Positions 39,286 through 48,512 of a DNA stretch of 64,000 nucleotides are shown piece after piece. The notes beneath the pieces are model-generated. The model saw nothing but the letters and a program-made list of their open reading frames with translations. It had not been told where the DNA came from and did no database searches. Numbering within the stretch: the stretch's first letter is position 1; the number at the start of each line of letters is the position of its first letter. The stretch lies in assembly GCF_003790525.1 (NCBI RefSeq), contig NZ_CP033636.1. The stretch is one strand, 5' to 3'. A program made the translations under genes and the position numbers. This stretch comes from Escherichia coli (GTDB lineage: Bacteria > Pseudomonadota > Gammaproteobacteria > Enterobacterales > Enterobacteriaceae).

Positions 39286-41298
39286 TTAAGAAAGTATTTG
39301 ATGAACTAGCTTACTGACTTCAATAGACAATAAAGAAGTATCATCAACTGTTACGAAAGTGTCCGTTTCAAAACCAATTATTTCATCAGTCTTAATACCA
39401 ACACCAACGATTTCTATTCCATTACATTTAGCCTTTTCCATAACTTCGCCGATAGTAAATTCCGATTTATTCGGATAACCATCAGTTATAAGAAAAATTA
39501 TTTTCCTATCGAATTGGCTGTCAAGTAACAGATCAACAGCTGCCATTAAAGCCGATCCCGTAGGGGTATAATAACCCTTACATCCAAGAGTGAATTTCGA
39601 TAGAGATTCCTCAACGCTTTGATCAAACGTTTTGATAATCTCAAATTCACTTTCCTTGAAGGGAAAGACTATATTGGAGACATGCATTTTTGACAAACTT
39701 TCAGCGGCCATCGATAAAGCAAGATCTGACTTAATGGCATGAATATATCTTTCATCATTAGCCATTGACGCTGAAATATCACGAACTAATACGAGGCCAA
39801 CATGCCCTCTATTTTTAGATTCGCTTTGAGCTCTGAAGACATCACGAACTCCCATTGGTGACAGAATTAATCGATTTCCATCGAAGGTAATTCCACGCTC
39901 ATGAGTTTTGTTTCGGCCACGCATTTTAACCTGCTGTAAAACAGACAAGTCGCTACCGATTGAATGACTCAGAGACAAAGCCTCATTGTAAACATTCAAA
40001 TCGATAAGGAGATCAGGGATATCCCATTCAGAAGCACCGAATTCGGCTTTCACGTCATCGGATACTTTTGATGCAATACCTTCAATCTCTTCAGCCAAAG
40101 CATCGTGATAATCTTCGCTATCCTCATCACTGCCAAGAAAGGCATCCAACAAATCTGCCAGTATCTCCCATTGAGCCGATGAAAAGTTACTTTCATCTTC
40201 AACGTTAGTCGAACTGGCTTCATCTGATTCACTCTCGGAAGGGTTAATCGCATCAGTATCGTCTTCAATAATGTTATCACCTGTGGGATTGCCACCGGTG
40301 GGTTCATTATTTCCCTCGTTATCTTCAGCAAGTTCTGAAGGCTCAGAACATCCCTCTTGAGCAAGATCAGAGTTATCGGAAGTATCTGCCTGACCTTCAC
40401 TATCGTCCTCAGAATCATCCTCACGACTATCAGTCGACTCAAGCGATTTATCTTCTGATTCGGTATCGGTATCGGTATCGGTCTCGGATTCATCATATGC
40501 CTCCTGCTCCTCCTGCTCTGTCTGCTGCTGTTGTTCCCTTGCCTCATCCCGCAGTCTCTCTAAAAGAGCCAGGGTCTTACGAGCAAGGGATTCACAGCCC
40601 TGAGTATTTTCACAACCAAGAGCATCATGAAAAATTTCCTCAACATCAGAAATTACTGGAGAAAGTATCTTTTGGGCATAGTCAAAAAACGGATCGAGTG
40701 TTTCTTTGTGACCTGCCTGCTGAAGGACTTTTACTCGCAATGAGTTAAGCAGATACCACTCAATAAATAGGACAGGATTTTCCGGACGAGAAGATATATC
40801 AGGAGTCATCCTTCCGGCTTTAACCATCAGTGCGTAAGTGGCTGCAAGCCGCCGCTTTGCATCCGGATAATCGTTACCAACCTTCTCTTCCATCTGTACA
40901 TCATCGAACAGATTTATAAGCCCGGTAAGACGTTTTGCCCTGCTATAAGCTTTACGTTTCTCAGCGAGGCTCTCAAACTCTGCATTCATTCCGTCATCGA
41001 AGCGTGTAAACCCTTCAGATGACTTGAGAACACTATTAAAGGCGTCACTGTAAACCTCGCTGTCGGTATAGCGACCATGACCAGCTTCATGACAGGTAAA
41101 ACCTTCAATCAGACTGACAAAGTCATCATCGCTATAATCGCCGTTTGGTAAAACACAAACTTTATTTACAGGATCAAAATACGGTCCTTTGGTATTGTCG
41201 TCTATTACAACTCTTACATCGCCTAAGCCGCTAATGACTTTTGCTATATTCTGTAAACGCTTAATATGGCGCGGTGATGATTTAAGATCTAATTTCAT
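39286..41298 (-). CDS. vWA domain protein with acidic low-complexity region (CobT-like)
   Basis: 670 aa; C-terminal vWA (LVLVRDISASM...FLITDGYPN); central acidic, Asp/Glu/Ser-rich region with TDTDTDTE repeat; AAAGAGG SD. Confidence 0.65.
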   Translation of the reverse strand: MKLDLKSSPRHIKRLQNIAKVISGLGDVRVVIDDNTKGPYFDPVNKVCVLPNGDYSDDDFVSLIEGFTCHEAGHGRYTDSEVYSDAFNSVLKSSEGFTRFDDGMNAEFESLAEKRKAYSRAKRLTGLINLFDDVQMEEKVGNDYPDAKRRLAATYALMVKAGRMTPDISSRPENPVLFIEWYLLNSLRVKVLQQAGHKETLDPFFDYAQKILSPVISDVEEIFHDALGCENTQGCESLARKTLALLERLRDEAREQQQQTEQEEQEAYDESETDTDTDTESEDKSLESTDSREDDSEDDSEGQADTSDNSDLAQEGCSEPSELAEDNEGNNEPTGGNPTGDNIIEDDTDAINPSESESDEASSTNVEDESNFSSAQWEILADLLDAFLGSDEDSEDYHDALAEEIEGIASKVSDDVKAEFGASEWDIPDLLIDLNVYNEALSLSHSIGSDLSVLQQVKMRGRNKTHERGITFDGNRLILSPMGVRDVFRAQSESKNRGHVGLVLVRDISASMANDERYIHAIKSDLALSMAAESLSKMHVSNIVFPFKESEFEIIKTFDQSVEESLSKFTLGCKGYYTPTGSALMAAVDLLLDSQFDRKIIFLITDGYPNKSEFTIGEVMEKAKCNGIEIVGVGIKTDEIIGFETDTFVTVDDTSLLSIEVSKLVHQILS
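40183..40193. repeat. AAAGTWACTTT palindrome copy 7 (inside vWA CDS, S-N-F register)
   Basis: Exact match tgAAAAGTTACTTTcat. Confidence 0.9.
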
Positions 41299-41375: not shown

Positions 41376-42503
41376 TTACCAGCCTTTGAGCTCGATATCA
41401 AAACCATTTTCAACATTGTCTTCCTGTTGCGAAACTGATTTCTCAGGTTCAGCTACAGGATCAGTGTTTGAAAACGTGCTGTTATTTATATCGTTCTCTA
41501 CGACAGGTTCAACCTGGAACACATTTGTTGAATCTAAAATAGCTTCAATACCTGTGTTCTGTAGCGCGTTCGGTTCTGTTTGTGAGCTTTGATTAAATGA
41601 TCTGGTAATAGATTCCAACCAGTCAGTAACCTTTTGCTCTCCTGAAATAATACGCTTTAACATTGAAGCATCACTCATGAAATAAAACCACTGCTGTAAC
41701 ACCGCAACGTCGCGAGGTTCAGAAATGGCACCTTTAGGTAAATTATTCATTATGTGTTTTATAGCTTCTGCAAGTACTGCCGCCTCTTTATGTATAAACA
41801 TGAAGCTAATGATCTTATTTTGCATTTGCTTCAGTCGGTCAATAGTACTTGAGCGCAAATTGTTATTTTTGCTAATTTTTTCATAAACCTTCATTGCTTC
41901 TTCTGCCAGATCTGTTATCAATTGTTCCTGATAGTAGTCCTGGGTTTCATCACCTTCAACGCTAATAGGCGTAAAAGGAATAAAGTGAGCAATATTAAAT
42001 CTAAAGGATTTTATGAAATCATCTTTAGTTAATTTCAACTGATCAATCAAAGAAGACATTCTTGGGCTTCTATTTTTTTCAGCCTCAATATGCATCTCAT
42101 AATTGTCTACAACGTTTTGAATACCTGCCTGAAACTCTCGTTCAATCTCTTGGGCCCCTTCCAGAAACTCTTCCATACTGGATACTGGTAAAATCCACAT
42201 ATTGCTATAGCGGATGCACAAGCGTGAGCAAAGAGTTGATATTCTGCTGGTAATCGTACTTTTGAAGCTAAGGGCTTTTATGTCAATCCAGCGTACTTCG
42301 CTTTTAGATACGCTTTTTTGATCCGTAATATCATCTCCATCATAAGACAAATCGATTTTATCGGTTCGACGCGATCCTTGACAGCCACTTATTTCAATTT
42401 TTGTTATAACTGCACCTTCCAGTAAATCTGGATATGATTTTGCAAAATTCTCAGAGATTTGTTTTGCAGATACTTTGTTAAGCATTGAAGTATTTAAAGT
42501 CAT
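41376..42503 (-). CDS. hypothetical protein (about 375 aa)
   Basis: ATG at 42503 preceded by GGAG; the track ORF starts at TTG 42515; sits between the AAA+ and vWA genes. Confidence 0.45.
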   Translation of the reverse strand: MTLNTSMLNKVSAKQISENFAKSYPDLLEGAVITKIEISGCQGSRRTDKIDLSYDGDDITDQKSVSKSEVRWIDIKALSFKSTITSRISTLCSRLCIRYSNMWILPVSSMEEFLEGAQEIEREFQAGIQNVVDNYEMHIEAEKNRSPRMSSLIDQLKLTKDDFIKSFRFNIAHFIPFTPISVEGDETQDYYQEQLITDLAEEAMKVYEKISKNNNLRSSTIDRLKQMQNKIISFMFIHKEAAVLAEAIKHIMNNLPKGAISEPRDVAVLQQWFYFMSDASMLKRIISGEQKVTDWLESITRSFNQSSQTEPNALQNTGIEAILDSTNVFQVEPVVENDINNSTFSNTDPVAEPEKSVSQQEDNVENGFDIELKGW

Positions 42504-42871
42504 GGGTTTCTCCAAAAAAAAGGGGAAACCCTCCCCAACGGGAAAGATTTCCCGATAGGGTTGATATTAAAGCTTCTCTGGTGAAATTAAAAGAATACCG
42601 GGAAACTCAGCAACAACATCATCATTGCCCATTGCTCCCTGATACATATAACCTTTTAATTCCATTTGTTTAATCAGACCTTCCATATTTATTTTACCAT
42701 CATGATAAAACAATAAAGAATAGTCGTTATTCAGTTGCATAAGTCCAGTAAAATTAGTTCCGTTTTTTGCTATAGCAATGGTAGCAGCACCATCCGTACT
42801 TAAAAACGCACTAAATTCAAGATGGGATAACTCTGAGATACAAATATCAGAGGTTTCATAACAAATCCCAT

Positions 42872-43930
42872 CTAACTCGACTTTTTTGCTGTGAAATACT
42901 CCAGCGATTTATCCTTGTCTTCGCCAAGAGAAAGATCTATAGCTTGAAGAACAAGATCGACCACATGTAAAGGTAAAGCAGAAGCAAAAGCTATTTTGAA
43001 AGTGTCAAGAAGACTAAAGGTTTTTAACGTCATCGACGTGCCAACCCAAGCTACTAATTGACGAATATCCATCACACTGTCTTCTGTACCAGAGTCATTT
43101 ACTGCAATCGCTACTCTTACGAACTTCTCAATGACCTGAAAAGGCAAAGAGCTATATCGTTTAGTAAGCACATTGGTTAAAGCAACTTTGTCGGGCTTCT
43201 CCATTTCAACTATCAAGAACCGCTTTATAAAAGCTGCATCTTGACGTTGAGAAGAAACGAACCGGCGAGCGCCTCCACTCATGTTTGTGTTTGCAGTACC
43301 AATAAATCGCGTGTAGCCATTAGCAGTTATAACCTCACCACCATTAGCACTGAGTGACCAGGGCTTACGTTCAATGGGCATGTGAAGTTTTGCTGCCGTA
43401 TCAGGATCGATTTTGTCCACTTCATCCAGAAGAATGAGGTGACCATTACGAAATCCCGTTACCAAATCGCTGTGTACAAAACCTGTATTACCACCATTAA
43501 GACTGCGCTCACCTTCAAGCTCATCAACTCGAATATTGCTGTTGATCTGCTTAATTGTCAGCGGCCAATTCATCATGTGGCTAATGTACATTACCATTTC
43601 AGTCTTGCCAGAACCGGACTCACCTTTAAGACACACACTTAAATCTATATCCGGACTGATAAGCAGTTTAACCACTTGTTCAAGTATTCGGGGATTTGGT
43701 ATGTAGTCTTTGTTCAGCGGAGCTCGATACGAGGTTTTAGTTTTGAAAACAGGCACAGCCATCTTTGGATCCATTTCTGGAATACCAAAAAGGTCCTTTG
43801 CTAGAACTAAAAGATACTCACCTTTATCCACATAATGTTTTAACTTTATAACATCCGGGGAAAGAAGAGCTTCTAATTTTTCATAAGCATCAGAAGATGT
43901 TTCATTTAACTTCATAGCGGCATTAGACAT
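42872..43930 (-). CDS. AAA+ ATPase (MoxR/CbbQ/CobS-like)
   Basis: Walker A GESGSGKT and Walker B LILLDEVD; 352 aa; paired with the downstream vWA gene as in MoxR-vWA and CobS-CobT systems. Confidence 0.7.
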   Translation of the reverse strand: MSNAAMKLNETSSDAYEKLEALLSPDVIKLKHYVDKGEYLLVLAKDLFGIPEMDPKMAVPVFKTKTSYRAPLNKDYIPNPRILEQVVKLLISPDIDLSVCLKGESGSGKTEMVMYISHMMNWPLTIKQINSNIRVDELEGERSLNGGNTGFVHSDLVTGFRNGHLILLDEVDKIDPDTAAKLHMPIERKPWSLSANGGEVITANGYTRFIGTANTNMSGGARRFVSSQRQDAAFIKRFLIVEMEKPDKVALTNVLTKRYSSLPFQVIEKFVRVAIAVNDSGTEDSVMDIRQLVAWVGTSMTLKTFSLLDTFKIAFASALPLHVVDLVLQAIDLSLGEDKDKSLEYFTAKKSS

Positions 43931-43987: not shown

Positions 43988-44965
43988 TTATTTGAGATTC
44001 ATTTGGCAAATAGTTGCCATCAGTTTCCTGATTTGAGGCACATTATAACCAAGATGATTTCCCACTATTTCAAAAGCTTCAGACATGATCCATTCAAAAT
44101 GATTTTCGAATATTGGATTGATTTCTAACTTGCCAAAAGCGTTTCGTTTAGTTAACAGATCACATGAAACAAGCTCGTCAAACAACTCTAATGTGGATTT
44201 AAAAGCTTTTATGTAAACATCCATAATTTCCCTGTCAGTCCATTTAACAGCCAGTTTTTTTTCTGACATTAAATAATCCTGATCAAAGAAGATGTCCCAG
44301 CCCATATCGTCATTGCAATCATGCAAAATGATTTCATCATCATTCCTGCATTCAGCTAATTTCGTGTTTTCACTAATCGAACGATGCGAATGATAATAGA
44401 GCCATGATTTTAATTCCGCTCTAAATTCACATGCATCAAGTCCATGACATAAACAAGTGTATTCAAATGATTTTGACATATACCACCGTGTTTCAGCTTC
44501 TAAAAGTGGATTCACTGTGATATTACCATTGTCATCTTTGAAGAATAACTTTCTCCTCAACACTAGTTCTTTAATGATTTCCAAAGACTCTTCCATAGCG
44601 GATAGAAAAACAACATACACATCCTCAGGGGTCCATTCTATTACCAGACCACCCAAATCTGGGTTATATTCTTCAACCGTATATAGATAATCTGTTTCTG
44701 CTGCAAAATTAATTGTATGCAAAATCTGATTTTTAAGTAATTTGGATTTTTCATAAAGGTGATTTTCACGCCTTTCAGAATCATAATTTATCTCAGAAAT
44801 GTTACTTTCTTCTGATTTAAAGTTTAATCCGGACGTGTAAGCATCATTTAAATGCTCTTTGGGTGAATCAACTATTTGCGTTATTTCATCTTCATCTATA
44901 TCGAGTATAGAAAAAAAACTAAGTTGATTACTACTTATTGCAGTAGCCCTAAATTTTTGTTTCAT
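43988..44965 (-). CDS. hypothetical protein (325 aa)
   Basis: ORF from track; GGAG SD. Confidence 0.45.
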   Translation of the reverse strand: MKQKFRATAISSNQLSFFSILDIDEDEITQIVDSPKEHLNDAYTSGLNFKSEESNISEINYDSERRENHLYEKSKLLKNQILHTINFAAETDYLYTVEEYNPDLGGLVIEWTPEDVYVVFLSAMEESLEIIKELVLRRKLFFKDDNGNITVNPLLEAETRWYMSKSFEYTCLCHGLDACEFRAELKSWLYYHSHRSISENTKLAECRNDDEIILHDCNDDMGWDIFFDQDYLMSEKKLAVKWTDREIMDVYIKAFKSTLELFDELVSCDLLTKRNAFGKLEINPIFENHFEWIMSEAFEIVGNHLGYNVPQIRKLMATICQMNLK

Positions 44966-44978
44966 GGGGACTCCAAAA

Positions 44979-45005
44979 GGAGAAATCCCATGAAGGGATT
45001 TCTCC
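44979..45005 (-). repeat. Perfect 11-bp-stem hairpin, arm-swapped relative of the hairpin at 34844
   Basis: GGAGAAATCCC-ATGAA-GGGATTTCTCC; same stem sequence as 34844-34870 with the two arms exchanged; followed on the minus strand by UUUU, SD and ATG. Confidence 0.7.
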
Positions 45006-45025
45006 CCTTTAGGGTGGGTTTAATG

Positions 45026-45403
45026 TCAGATCTGATTAAAGCTACTTTGTCCAAAACCTTTTAGAGGTTTAGGTATGTGAGCCAACTTACTTGTTGCTAC
45101 CACTCTCATGTAGTCAAGAGGATGTTCTCTCCCTTCAATCATAATAGTATCGACAACAATATAACCGGAGACCATCAACTCATCACCCTGATTTATACCA
45201 GTGAAACAGGTTGAATACATTTCAGGCGACACCTTGATTTGAACTGAAAATTCTCTCTCAGTGATTTCACCATCAACTTCTGTCTTCATCCTATTTTTGA
45301 GCTTTATTAACAAACCTATACTCTGGTCAGTCATTTTTTTCTCCACAGCACTGATAACTATCCCGGACACTTTTACTTCATTGATATATTCAAGATATGA
45401 CAT
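45026..45403 (-). CDS. hypothetical protein (125 aa)
   Basis: GAGGAG SD. Confidence 0.4.
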   Translation of the reverse strand: MSYLEYINEVKVSGIVISAVEKKMTDQSIGLLIKLKNRMKTEVDGEITEREFSVQIKVSPEMYSTCFTGINQGDELMVSGYIVVDTIMIEGREHPLDYMRVVATSKLAHIPKPLKGFGQSSFNQI

Positions 45404-45460
45404 TTTCCGCTCCTCGATTTGTTCAAAGAGAAGCCCCGTTAGGGTTCCCCCTTAACAGGA

Positions 45461-46333
45461 TTAAATAAATTTATTAGTTACATACATGAACGTGCAGACT
45501 ACCAAACAGGCAATTCCGGCAATATGTAACCAATTTCTTGTTGGTTTAGTTGGTGCAATCGCTAAAGAGTTCTCCAACTTCTCTGTTACAAGACGTCGAT
45601 TCTCTGCTTTAGCCGCATCATCTAAATATTGAGTTTCACGCTTAGCGAGAGTCTCAATTTTCGATTTTATTGCATGGTCCCATCCTTTAGTTTCAAAAAC
45701 GCTTAACTCACTAAAGGTGTGCGTCATGAGATCTTCTGGGAAACCCAGTTTTTTCATTAACGGACGAATGGTATCATACATTTTTTCTACATTTTCGTAG
45801 TGGGCCTTTACTGCGACATCAAAACGCTTACGTAAAGTTAATTTTTCACGTTTGCAAATGATGTCCGAAACCCAATTTATTAACTGCTCATTTTTGAGTT
45901 CACTGGCTTTTTCAAGTGAGTAATCCAGATTATCCACGTCAAGAAATGAATTTAATCCGTATTTTTCAAACTCCTCAACAAGATATTTATCCAGTTCAGT
46001 TAAGCTTTTAAAAAGTGGTACATCTGGGGAAGCTTTAAGAAGCTTATAAGCTCCTTCGAAATCAATTTTCTTGACCACGAGCTCCACAACATCCACATGA
46101 TAATAGCTTGAATAAGCAGAAAGCTTTTCGGCCAACAAAGACACAGGCTTAAGAGACTTAAGTTCAATGATATTTGGGCCGTCCTCATTCAAAATAACAA
46201 TCAGTTCATTATCACGTTCTGTATATTTCATCAGAACTTCTAAGAGCTGTTTGTTTAGCGCCTTATCCATCTCTGGAATAATTTCACTAAAGGTTTGATG
46301 AAGGGCTTTACTGCGAGCTTTATTTTTAGACAT
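45461..46333 (-). CDS. hypothetical protein with C-terminal membrane anchor (290 aa)
   Basis: C-terminal hydrophobic helix WLHIAGIACLVVCTFMYV; AGGTGA SD. Confidence 0.45.
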   Translation of the reverse strand: MSKNKARSKALHQTFSEIIPEMDKALNKQLLEVLMKYTERDNELIVILNEDGPNIIELKSLKPVSLLAEKLSAYSSYYHVDVVELVVKKIDFEGAYKLLKASPDVPLFKSLTELDKYLVEEFEKYGLNSFLDVDNLDYSLEKASELKNEQLINWVSDIICKREKLTLRKRFDVAVKAHYENVEKMYDTIRPLMKKLGFPEDLMTHTFSELSVFETKGWDHAIKSKIETLAKRETQYLDDAAKAENRRLVTEKLENSLAIAPTKPTRNWLHIAGIACLVVCTFMYVTNKFI

Positions 46334-46727: not shown

Positions 46728-48512
46728 TTATTCTGTATAAACTGGAGAAATTCGAATATTAGCTGCTTCTTTTATCTTTTCTTCACTGCATTCTCTTAAA
46801 AAGAAAGAAGGGTCACCATACCACATTACAAAAAGTTGCTTTTCTGCACGCGTAAATCCAACATAAAGCAAACGTCTTTCTTCTTCTATTGCCTCCTCCC
46901 CAACTGATCTTTTACTTGGTATCTGATCCGCATTACAACTCATTATTATTACTTTATTCCACTCAAGACCCTTTGAACCATGCAAGGTTGATAGGACTAC
47001 TTTCTCTGGGCTGTATTCCTCGTCCTTCTTCCTAGGGCCTAATGACATTGCAGCAGCACGATTGATCATATTCATCCAACCAGTCTTTTCTGCCCACTGT
47101 TTACAAGTGTCTAAAGCAATTTTTGTTAAGGTTGCTGTACCTTTATTACTCCTCATCTTGATTGACGACGATTCCATCCATTTCGTAAGGTTGGCGAAAC
47201 GTTTTGCTATCTCAACTTTATCAGTACTTTCCTGGGTAAAGCGCACGAAGTTTGAATGTAATGTTTTTGTTTCGAGAGAACTGTCCTCCGGGATGGCAAG
47301 GTCGCCAAAAGTAACTTTTCTTCCTCTCATACTCAATGCCACATCATCCAAAACTGATTCCTGTTCTCCAAACAATGCCAATACTCTCTTCATTAAGCGA
47401 GGATCATTTGATTGTCGGAAAAAGGCCATAAGGCTTAACACATCGCTTGTTTCTTTTTCATCCCAGAATGATTTACCTCCGTAACGAATTACTGGCTGTT
47501 CGATCAAACTTTCTAGCTCATCCAAGTGAGCATTATTGCGGCTTAGAATTGCCCATCCATGTGGATCCTGATTTATAAGGCTTAAAATACCCTGTATCTG
47601 TTCCTCCATATCTACATATGAACGAAAAGTGACCTTTCCTCCTCCCTTTTTTGCCGAGCGTAACTCTTTGGCATAACGGTAAACATTCTTTCCTATCAGT
47701 GCTCCGGCCACCTCTAAAATTTCAGGTTCACACCTAAAGCATGTGTTTAAGTAAAATATGTTAGGTCTGAAGTGTTTTTCAAACTGTTGAAATATTTTGA
47801 CTCCTCCTGAGGATCTGAAGGAGTAGATGGCCTGATCATCGTCTCCAACTATACTCGTATAGACTCCAGCTCTTGTATGCAATGCTATCCATGAGAATTG
47901 TATAGAGTCAGTATCCTGAACTTCGTCTACTATCAAATGTGTCAAATCTAACGTGCGCATTTTTCCCGAATGCATTTGACCGACAACAAATTTTGAAAGA
48001 GCATTGAGGTCCGCCACATGGTCTTTCTGGCATAACGCCTGATAGGTATTAAATAAATGGATCTGTTGTCTGTTATGCCGAACTGAAATCACATCCGTAT
48101 CCATTTCTCTGCCGATAGCATCAATAACGAATTCAGCTTCAGCAAACTTCATCGTTACACCGGATTCTTTCAAAGCCCGGTGAATGACAGATCTCTGTGC
48201 TGGCCCTATCAACATCTTTCCCGGCCAGCGAATCATGTCCAGTTGCTTCTTAACGAGTCCGTGAAAAGTATCCACCAGCACCCGGTCAAGATCCTTCTTG
48301 CTCAATCGCTTTTGTAACTTTGCTGCAAGTGCGTTTGTTGCAGCGCGAGTAAAGGTCACCATCCCGATTCTTGCATATGGATACTTTTTGAGAATCGATA
48401 TAACCGCTTCTATCATGGTGAATGATTTGCCTGATCCAGGCGCTGCTATCACCATATTGTTTGCGCTAGCATTCTCGATAACAGGTCTTTGCTCTTCTGT
48501 TGGCTTACCCAT
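46728..48512 (-). CDS. UvrD/Rep-type superfamily-1 DNA helicase
   Basis: 594 aa; N-terminal Walker A AAPGSGKS; UvrD-like layout; GAGG SD. Confidence 0.7.
   Translation of the reverse strand: MGKPTEEQRPVIENASANNMVIAAPGSGKSFTMIEAVISILKKYPYARIGMVTFTRAATNALAAKLQKRLSKKDLDRVLVDTFHGLVKKQLDMIRWPGKMLIGPAQRSVIHRALKESGVTMKFAEAEFVIDAIGREMDTDVISVRHNRQQIHLFNTYQALCQKDHVADLNALSKFVVGQMHSGKMRTLDLTHLIVDEVQDTDSIQFSWIALHTRAGVYTSIVGDDDQAIYSFRSSGGVKIFQQFEKHFRPNIFYLNTCFRCEPEILEVAGALIGKNVYRYAKELRSAKKGGGKVTFRSYVDMEEQIQGILSLINQDPHGWAILSRNNAHLDELESLIEQPVIRYGGKSFWDEKETSDVLSLMAFFRQSNDPRLMKRVLALFGEQESVLDDVALSMRGRKVTFGDLAIPEDSSLETKTLHSNFVRFTQESTDKVEIAKRFANLTKWMESSSIKMRSNKGTATLTKIALDTCKQWAEKTGWMNMINRAAAMSLGPRKKDEEYSPEKVVLSTLHGSKGLEWNKVIIMSCNADQIPSKRSVGEEAIEEERRLLYVGFTRAEKQLFVMWYGDPSFFLRECSEEKIKEAANIRISPVYTE
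47308..47318. repeat. AAAGTWACTTT palindrome copy 9 (inside helicase CDS, encodes K-V-T-F)
   Basis: Exact match ccAAAAGTAACTTTTct. Confidence 0.9.

Follow-up and report, generated by a model that had tools for sequence, protein, structure and literature searches.

A start-less reading frame behind the CobS-like ATPase gene of IncHI2 plasmids is very probably reached by -1 programmed ribosomal frameshifting

Behind the gene of an AAA+ ATPase on the backbone of IncHI2 plasmids lies a reading frame with protein-like sequence and no start codon over its first 46 codons, which raises the question of how, if at all, this frame is translated. A preliminary description of the window (the whole stretch of DNA analysed here, 64,000 nucleotides of an IncHI2 plasmid backbone from Escherichia coli, with trhN and trhI nearby) had proposed four answers: a decayed gene, a frameshifted or recoded gene, a non-canonical start, or a sequencing error. 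Using comparisons with related loci, estimates of selection, structure prediction and profile searches, we come down on the side of recoding. We consider it highly probable that the start-less frame is the 3' part of the ATPase gene itself, read by -1 frameshifting at the heptamer A_AAA_AAG, and we find that the other three answers do not hold, the non-canonical start being simply unneeded.

The ATPase (RefSeq ATP-binding protein WP_000063335.1) is a member of Pfam AAA_5 (E 5.3e-28) and of PHROG 249, and its gene, part of the backbone, is found in some 1400 sequenced plasmids. IncHI2 plasmids from E. coli, Salmonella, Enterobacter and others match the region at 100% identity, and 1116 PLSDB records reach 99% or more. 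Much of what had been described from the letters of the sequence stands: the gap between the ATPase stop and the next gene, given as roughly 350 bp, measures 368 nt to the ATG of the DUF3150 gene at 42503, and the minus-strand frame of about 100 codons is there, with 113 open codons (42908 to 42570) between a TAA at 42911-42909 upstream and a TAA at 42569-42567 downstream, with a C-terminus that reads ...PGILLISPEKL. Its first ATG, GTG or TTG is indeed the ATG at 42740, 57 codons from the end. What has to be corrected is the placement of the frame within the gap, as it reaches back over the final 12 sense codons of the ATPase gene, and this overlap includes an in-phase A_AAA_AAG. The ATPase gene ends with GAG TAT TTC ACA GCA AAA AAG TCG AGT TAG. 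A slip of -1 at the heptamer leads into GTC GAG TTA GAT GGG..., and conceptual translation then yields a 454-aa product consisting of the ATPase plus a further domain, which shares 350 residues with the predicted short product. The -1 frame opens 9 codons before the heptamer and runs for 104 codons past it (Table 1). The heptamer (42887-42881) adjoins the interval 42840-42880, whose homopolymer tracts had been named in the preliminary description.

Table 1. Features of the ATPase locus and its surroundings (positions are those of the window)
Feature	Position	Strand	Remarks
AAA_5 (CobS-like, MoxR-type) ATPase gene, 0 frame	42872-43930	-	352 aa; C-terminus ...EYFTAKKSS; stop TAG at 42874-42872
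Slippery heptamer A_AAA_AAG	42881-42887	-	Phase GC[A AAA AAG] in the ATPase frame; 0-frame stop two codons on
Shine-Dalgarno-like GGAG	42899-42902	-	Candidate stimulator, 11 nt upstream of the heptamer
-1-frame extension	42567-42881	-	104 codons (VELDGICYETSD...ISPEKL) plus TAA; with 42882-43930 gives the predicted 454-aa product
Candidate 3' stimulatory hairpin	42813-42878	-	Outer stem GATGGGAT (42872-42865) with ATCCCATC (42828-42821), from 8 nt past the heptamer
57-aa 'hypothetical protein' WP_001176647.1 (RefSeq)	42567-42740	-	Read as a truncated call of the extension
23-codon ATG ORF in the ATPase frame, right after the ATPase stop	42800-42871	-	From the ORF list; judged incidental
Terminator-like G+C hairpin followed by T8	42522-42553	-	From a terminator scan; past the extension stop and before the DUF3150 ATG at 42503
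DUF3150 protein gene	41376-42503	-	Pfam DUF3150, E 2.3e-23; downstream partner
670-aa VWA (CobT-like) protein gene	39286-41298	-	Pfam VWA, E 2.2e-7; downstream partner

We followed this arrangement into related loci, which were collected by protein searches and contig look-ups. The DNA was examined at 17 loci with a -1 ORF, namely IncHI2, IncHI1, IncHI1B, seven IncHI-like backbones (L031-L037), three plasmid or chromosomal Shewanella loci (L010, L012 and L013) and four metagenomic loci (L038-L041). The set spans considerable divergence, with Shewanella ATPases about 27-29% identical to that of the window and metagenomic ATPases 36-48% identical to the Shewanella one. At every one of the 17, a shifty heptamer in phase with the ATPase gene stands 0-2 codons short of its stop, and in all of them the -1 frame opens 3-18 codons 5' of the heptamer and then continues for 100-197 codons. 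IncHI1 and IncHI1B (pHCM1-type, about 71% nucleotide identity) retain GGAGTATTACACTGCAAAAAAG, with the 0-frame stop directly after AAG, and their -1-frame peptide is 45-47% identical to the IncHI2 extension from the first codon after the heptamer. The frame is thus carried by related elements, and peptide identity of this order at about 71% DNA identity, together with a dN/dS of about 0.2 (see below), demonstrates that it is not a product of chance.

The heptamer is conserved as a shift site and varies in its letters. A_AAA_AAG is found at 14 loci, C_CCA_AAG in L038, G_GGA_AAG in L041 and A_AAA_AAT in Photorhabdus, so that X_XXA_AAG accounts for 16 of the 17. In E. coli, -1 shifts are most efficient on C_CCA_AAG, G_GGA_AAG and A_AAA_AAG, the last of which is under-represented among the genes of that species (Sharma et al., PMC4066793). 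It is difficult to account for a switch among these three top motifs other than by selection for slippage at the ribosome. As a control, we used a Lys-Lys pair in trhI, where the window also has A_AAA_AAG; the codons of this pair vary among the same lineages (AAA AAG, AAG AAG, AAG AAA or otherwise). More widely, the ATPases of 94 out of 116 family cluster representatives (DNA checked for 17) have KK, PK or GK within two residues of the C-terminus, which suggests that the arrangement is widespread. A contig scan yielded two further Shewanella positives; otherwise it returned mostly AAA_5 and sigma-54-type ATPases that are unrelated and lack a heptamer, and these we take as informal negatives. 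Two minor points concern the motifs themselves. The A_AAA_AAT of Photorhabdus is a less established motif, and the in-phase A_AAA_AAG inside trhI (47652), which was considered as a second recoding site, was rejected since it is not conserved among the lineages.

The heptamer and the extension either occur together or are both absent. A Klebsiella-type locus (L009), whose ATPase is 52% identical, has neither of them, and its ATPase-to-DUF3150 gap is reduced to 92 nt. A natural fusion is found in Buttiauxella, in which a single in-frame ORF of 456 aa (P0019, present on many contigs) lacks the heptamer. At the DNA level, Buttiauxella has GCA GCT AGG GTG ACG where the others have GCA AAA AAG T, and its junction TAAR/VTIEN matches the predicted trans-frame junction TAKK/VELDG residue for residue. 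A comparison with intact homologues in related elements had been suggested at the outset as a check, and the single ORF of Buttiauxella is a homologue of this kind.

We also asked whether the extension bears the marks of a functional protein. Between IncHI2 and IncHI1, its dN of 0.385 and dS of about 2 give a ratio near 0.2; pairs with less saturation give dN/dS values of 0.21-0.32. Codons 1-46, which precede any start codon in IncHI2, have dN and dS of 0.45 and 2.0, and codons 47 onward 0.34 and 1.9. These substitution patterns indicate that the extension is under purifying selection, the start-less part included. An AlphaFold2 model of the extension, built from 11 sequences, reached a pLDDT of 89.7 and contains strands at residues 23-28, 34-40 and 43-49. 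Since these strands precede or span Met48, the 57-aa product of the annotation would amount to half a domain. Taken as a whole, the comparisons show that the shift site and the trans-frame domain are each held in place by selection.

Four features expected of X_XXY_YYZ-type frameshifting are present at this locus: a heptamer in phase, a long overlapping -1 ORF with no conserved start, conservation of heptamer and frame beyond what the protein would need, and signs that the trans-frame product is functional.

The identity of the domain was less readily apparent. The IncHI2 extension has no Pfam, PHROGs or PADLOC match, the WGR model PF05406 matches none of 18 extension sequences even at E values up to 10, and a Foldseek search of the short-form model against the PDB gave no significant match. 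A word-indexed protein search with the extension returned nothing beyond truncated gene calls of the same locus, and tblastn against plasmids found it only in IncHI-type records. An HMM search with the extension profile across 1.84 billion representatives recovered only truncated calls and spurious repetitive proteins, from which the short form appears to be confined to these backbones. The longer extensions gave more information. Those of the Shewanella and metagenomic loci (176-189 aa; 112 aa in L041) align with one another, and the C-terminal half of this long form is homologous to the short form of the IncHI plasmids (hhalign with a long-form profile of 7 sequences, probability 79%, E 1.6e-5); an earlier hhalign comparison of the short form with the three Shewanella extensions was non-significant (probability 3.9%). 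When the long-form profile was compared with the whole PDB, its sole match was residues 5-68 of 2ra8_A (E 0.036), a segment that is itself a Pfam WGR domain (E 2.5e-19). As a yardstick for such values, 2ra8 compared with the WGR domain of PARP3 reaches an E of only 0.22. The extension has structural similarity to solved WGR domains, as a WGR fold requires. Based on these results, we consider it probably a divergent WGR-like domain. Compared with WGR domains proper (PF05406, as in the N-terminal domain of 2ra8, in PARP1/2/3 and in MolR-like proteins), the IncHI2 extension is without the W-G-R signature, and the IncHI short form has added N- and C-terminal elements. WGR is a DNA-binding domain (PMC7824862), and the extension probably binds nucleic acid, perhaps DNA, as well. 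A 302-aa protein that follows the IncC/SXT-type ATPase (L011) and has a ...GY motif in common with the extension was examined as a possible homologue and rejected (hhalign probability of about 1% or less).

Several other explanations for the start-less frame deserve consideration. One is that the extension is a separate small gene, translated from the ATG at 42740 (57 aa), from a non-canonical codon or by termination-reinitiation. The databases would agree with this, as RefSeq lists a 57-aa protein in IncHI2 and an 89-aa protein with a GTG start in IncHI1, and gene callers have produced many such truncated proteins. In L032, moreover, an ATG at extension codon 3 overlaps the ATPase stop (TAATG), so independent coupled translation is possible in that lineage and may contribute there. 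As an account of the family, we find a separate gene quite improbable. The first start codon in the extension frame falls at codon 2, 5, 9, 14, 25, 47, 68 or 97 according to the lineage (47 in IncHI2, 68 in L035 and 97 in Photorhabdus) with no position conserved, and no candidate codon for a non-canonical start is conserved either. The codons that precede these starts are as constrained as those that follow and form part of the predicted fold, and the alignment of the extensions begins at the codon right after the heptamer in every lineage. A separate gene would also leave unexplained the invariant in-phase heptamer, the switching of motifs and the Buttiauxella fusion. Decay, one of the four answers proposed at the outset, would mean that an ancestral in-frame fusion suffered a 1-nt deletion and that the tail is a non-functional remnant. 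Such a fusion is known in Buttiauxella, and homopolymer runs are indel-prone. We nevertheless find this barely credible, because the supposedly broken state recurs in 17 lineages whose synonymous divergence is saturated, with the -1 ORFs intact at every one of them, and because the break lies in every case on a shifty heptamer of top efficiency beside a stop; purifying selection and the confident fold of the tail rule decay out.

The remaining two explanations concern the run of six A's. If the homopolymer had been misread or misassembled, the true gene would be a single in-frame ORF; A6 tracts are error-prone on some platforms, and one-base differences are seen here in a few records (H59). 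Against this stand 1117 plasmid records, from many laboratories and platforms, in which the 101-nt junction is at least 99% identical, and the same frame arrangement in the IncHI1, Shewanella and metagenomic lineages. The matching records exclude a sequencing error, and the probability that we would still assign to it is negligible. Alternatively, RNA polymerase could slip on the A6 run and add one A to the transcript, which would encode the same AKKV... fusion, so that the protein sequence would be identical under both mechanisms. Poly-A tracts are known sites of transcriptional realignment, but the reported sites need runs of more than 7 A (PMC3711429). The homologues with C_CCA_AAG and G_GGA_AAG have just three A's, and the phase of the motif, which matters to ribosomes and not to RNA polymerase, is invariant. 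We leave only a very small chance to transcriptional slippage.

Candidate stimulators of the predicted shift lie on both sides of the heptamer. Upstream, each of the ten enterobacterial lineages, as well as L039, has a GGAG, GAGG or GGGG at a distance of 10-11 nt from the heptamer, despite differences in the residues encoded; such a Shine-Dalgarno-like motif is absent from the three Shewanella loci and from L038. Downstream, the IncHI2 hairpin has a minimum free energy of -18.1 kcal/mol (z -2.3) and begins 8 nt past the heptamer. Hairpins beginning 6-8 nt past the heptamer were predicted for 8 of the 9 enterobacterial lineages folded (z from -0.9 to -3.8, six of them at -2.2 or lower), and L031 has no convincing hairpin. 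In the seven lineages that are in register, the stem cells are 92% paired, with compensatory changes at two pairs and no variation at 5 of the 9. RNAalifold found no consensus structure in the 10-lineage alignment, and cmscan (Rfam) of 42500-43000 at E values up to 10 gave unrelated sub-threshold matches only and no frameshift element. As the arms of the stem also encode conserved DG and SHL residues, covariation is weak and the evidence for the stem is suggestive. The upstream GGAG and the downstream hairpin, both of them candidates, would probably raise slippage. The nearby 0-frame stop, which is another conserved feature (0-2 codons past the site), may do so too.

Taken together, these observations suggest a model for the expression of the gene. 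Ribosomes on the IncHI2 ATPase mRNA would reach GCA AAA AAG, and most would read two more codons and stop, giving the 352-aa protein. A fraction would slip one base back on A_AAA_AAG as the two tRNA-Lys re-pair on AAA AAA. The slipped ribosomes would decode GUC (Val) next and go on in the -1 frame for 104 codons, giving a 454-aa ATPase with a C-terminal WGR-like domain. One gene would in this way supply two isoforms at a fixed ratio, as in dnaX and chlD. The isoforms may co-assemble, so that some subunits of a CobS-like ring would carry the WGR-like, probably nucleic-acid-binding, module. Such a mixed ring could work with the DUF3150 protein and the VWA protein (a CobT-like adaptor), next to a primase and the TrhI helicase. 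The gene order of the DUF3150 and VWA genes is syntenic across related loci, RefSeq places a DUF7146/Toprim primase among the other neighbours, and the module would sit in a DNA-processing neighbourhood of a conjugative plasmid. One could go further and propose that a few WGR modules tether the ring to DNA ends or single-stranded DNA, making it a so far unrecognised ATP-driven DNA- or nucleoprotein-remodelling machine of MOBH-type elements that is tuned by frameshifting. This last step is speculative and we hold it to be rather doubtful; if true, it would imply a role in transfer or establishment for IncHI plasmids, Shewanella plasmids and related integrative elements.

The proposed mechanism has clear precedents. 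The E. coli dnaX gene, which gives tau and gamma, has the same A_AAA_AAG in an AAA+ ATPase gene and makes two isoforms of an AAA+ subunit. Its Shine-Dalgarno-like motif about 10 nt upstream and its hairpin a few nt downstream (PMC3711429) have a spacing similar to that of the IncHI2 site. The dnaX shift truncates the protein, whereas the IncHI2 shift would add a whole domain; the IncHI2 site, unlike that of dnaX, lies at the very end of the 0-frame ORF; and the IncHI2 ATPase is of the AAA_5 clade (CobS/MoxR-like), whereas dnaX encodes a clamp loader. The chlD or 'magnesium chelatase' genes, which shift at A_AAA_AAR (Antonov et al., 2013, PMC3711429; Kuznetsov et al., 2022, PMC9227772; Atkins et al., 2016, PMC5009743), are also of the chelatase-type AAA+ kind, and their -1 product has an added C-terminal module, as we predict here. 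One chlD gene gives the small and medium chelatase subunits through -1 frameshifting (PMC9227772; PMC5009743). The likeness extends to the short and long subunits from one gene, to natural in-frame fusions and to databases that list two adjacent genes. In-frame fusions elsewhere also served to support the chlD frameshift (PMC3711429), which is the same type of evidence as the Buttiauxella fusion provides here. There are clear differences nonetheless. The downstream ORF of chlD is about 1000 nt long and encodes a medium ChlD-type subunit (PMC3711429), as against a WGR-like domain of 100-190 aa in our family; the IncHI2 extension, at 104 aa, contains no VWA domain, and the 670-aa VWA gene is separate and two positions downstream. 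The AAA+ family is different as well, and the setting is a conjugative plasmid backbone rather than tetrapyrrole metabolism.

Mobile elements offer further parallels. The orfA-orfB pair of IS3/IS911 and the G/GT genes of phage tail chaperones also use -1 shifts on A_AAA_AAG-type heptamers near the end of the upstream ORF to make a fusion at a fixed ratio, and this type of motif is common in mobile elements (PMC4066793). Their products (transposase and tail assembly chaperone) are unrelated to the protein studied here, an ATPase of an accessory module of conjugative elements. In terms of protein partners, the module recalls CobS-CobT of the aerobic cobaltochelatase, likewise an AAA_5 motor with a VWA-containing adaptor, in which CobT inserts into the hexameric CobS ring (bioRxiv 10.64898/2026.07.21.739949), and weak matches to the CobS and CobT models were obtained. 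The ATPase and the VWA protein are not orthologues of these two, as the NCBIfam scores are far below the equivalog cut-offs (34.4 bits against 558.6 for the CobS model, and 33.5 bits against 779 for the cobaltochelatase VWA model), and by profile score only the AAA_5 and VWA superfamily memberships hold for the ATPase and the VWA protein. In comparison with CobS-CobT, the module has no CobN, possesses in addition a DUF3150 protein and the WGR-like extension, and lies next to a primase and a helicase. PADLOC gave weak, P-loop-level matches for the ATPase (E 2e-4 or worse) and none for the DUF3150 protein, the VWA protein or the extension.

While the mechanism is that of textbook bacterial -1 programmed frameshifting, this instance of it appears to be undescribed. 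Our literature search found no paper that ties IncHI, R27 or CobS-like plasmid ATPases to frameshifting, and the accessible part of the supplements to the GeneTack paper mentions neither pHCM1 nor CobS. The records that we inspected carry a spurious 'hypothetical protein' of 57 or 89 aa or leave the region unannotated, and none has a longer ATPase isoform. For multidrug and colistin resistance, IncHI1 and IncHI2 plasmids are major carriers, and the frameshift, if confirmed, would correct the annotation of a medically relevant backbone. It would add a broadly conserved family to the short list of bacterial -1 frameshift genes from outside insertion sequences and phages. The family would also be an unusually clean comparative case, in which the heptamer switches between the top three E. 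coli motifs, an in-frame fusion occurs naturally, and site and domain are lost together. Finally, a WGR-like, probably nucleic-acid-binding, module would give a first functional lead on the uncharacterised AAA_5-DUF3150-VWA module of conjugative elements.

Two smaller features of the intergenic region were also considered. The 23-codon ATG frame that had been noticed right at the ATPase stop does exist, and we judge it an incidental by-product of the extension. Its ATG is made of the letters of GAT GGG (Asp-Gly in the extension) read in the ATPase frame, and the counterpart frame in IncHI1 has just 11 codons. Past the extension stop, in the space occupied by the terminator-like hairpin of Table 1, sequences resembling CGGGAAAT...TTTCCCG are found at the same intergenic position in L009 and L029.

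The shift site at the end of the AAA_5 ATPase gene was compared among homologous loci with a second in-phase A_AAA_AAG, located within the helicase gene trhI, serving as the control. A -1 shift at the trhI heptamer would lead to a stop after 37 codons. Buttiauxella trhI has G_GGA_AAG at the equivalent position, and because three IncHI-like loci (L031, L032 and L033) code the site differently, we consider the trhI heptamer probably incidental.

Two lineages differ from the window at the end of the ATPase gene. In the Photorhabdus locus (L034), the altered heptamer gives a 0-frame product with the C-terminus ...AKNS, while the -1 ORF is intact over 103 codons and has its first start codon only at codon 97. 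This variant may be a less efficient shift site, may slip on the A_AAA tetramer alone, or may be a recent mutation. The metagenomic IncHI-like backbone L032 has kept A_AAA_AAG and shows an overlap between the ATPase stop and an ATG, an arrangement by which its extension might additionally be synthesized independently, through translational coupling.

Features of the ATPase region and of related loci
Feature	Location	Strand	Description
Three genes (325, 125 and 290 aa)	window 43988-46333	minus	upstream of ATPase
Terminator-like hairpin, then T8	window 42522-42553	minus	GGGAAATCTTTCCCGTTGGGGAGGGTTTCCC, inner part GGGGAGGGTTTCCCC
In-phase A_AAA_AAG	window 47652-47646	minus	TCG GCA AAA AAG GGA GGA GGA, within TrhI helicase gene trhI (46728-48512)
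A_AAA_AAT in place of A_AAA_AAG	L034 4044-4050		Photorhabdus tasmaniensis contig; single G-to-T change
ATPase stop overlapping ATG in extension frame	L032 5044-5060		metagenomic IncHI-like backbone; GTCGTAATGGAG
Separately initiated 302-aa protein	L011 4447-5355		IncC plasmid pEC2-NDM-3; 3' of ATPase relative

The three genes upstream of the ATPase are strictly syntenic with it in all IncHI-like loci fetched (L029, L031-L036) and may be part of the same functional module; their products had no match in Pfam, PHROG or NCBIfam. In the distant metagenomic relatives L038 and L039, the order is ATPase (with extension), DUF3150, a small ORF, a DUF7146/Toprim primase and a Fer2 ferredoxin, with no VWA gene called across either whole locus, and L039 has an integrase of phage type and an HTH regulator beside it. 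Judging from this gene content, the module occurs in integrative elements too, and VWA is not obligatory to it. The IncC/SXT-type ATPase relative of L011 (27% identity) has no heptamer and is followed by the 302-aa protein gene and then ssb-bet-exo; no homology of the 302-aa protein to the extension could be demonstrated.

The DUF3150 gene starts at TTG 42515 in the mechanical ORF list versus ATG 42503 in RefSeq. GGAGAAACCC precedes this ATG (region 42501-42515), which we regard as the more plausible start. Between it and the extension stop (42567), directly 5' of the DUF3150 ribosome-binding site, lies the hairpin with its T8; in both the Klebsiella-type backbone (L009) and that of Buttiauxella (L029), similar CGGGAAAT...TTTCCCG sequences lie in the same gap between genes. 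The hairpin may act as an attenuator or serve to bind a protein, setting ATPase expression apart from that of DUF3150/VWA.
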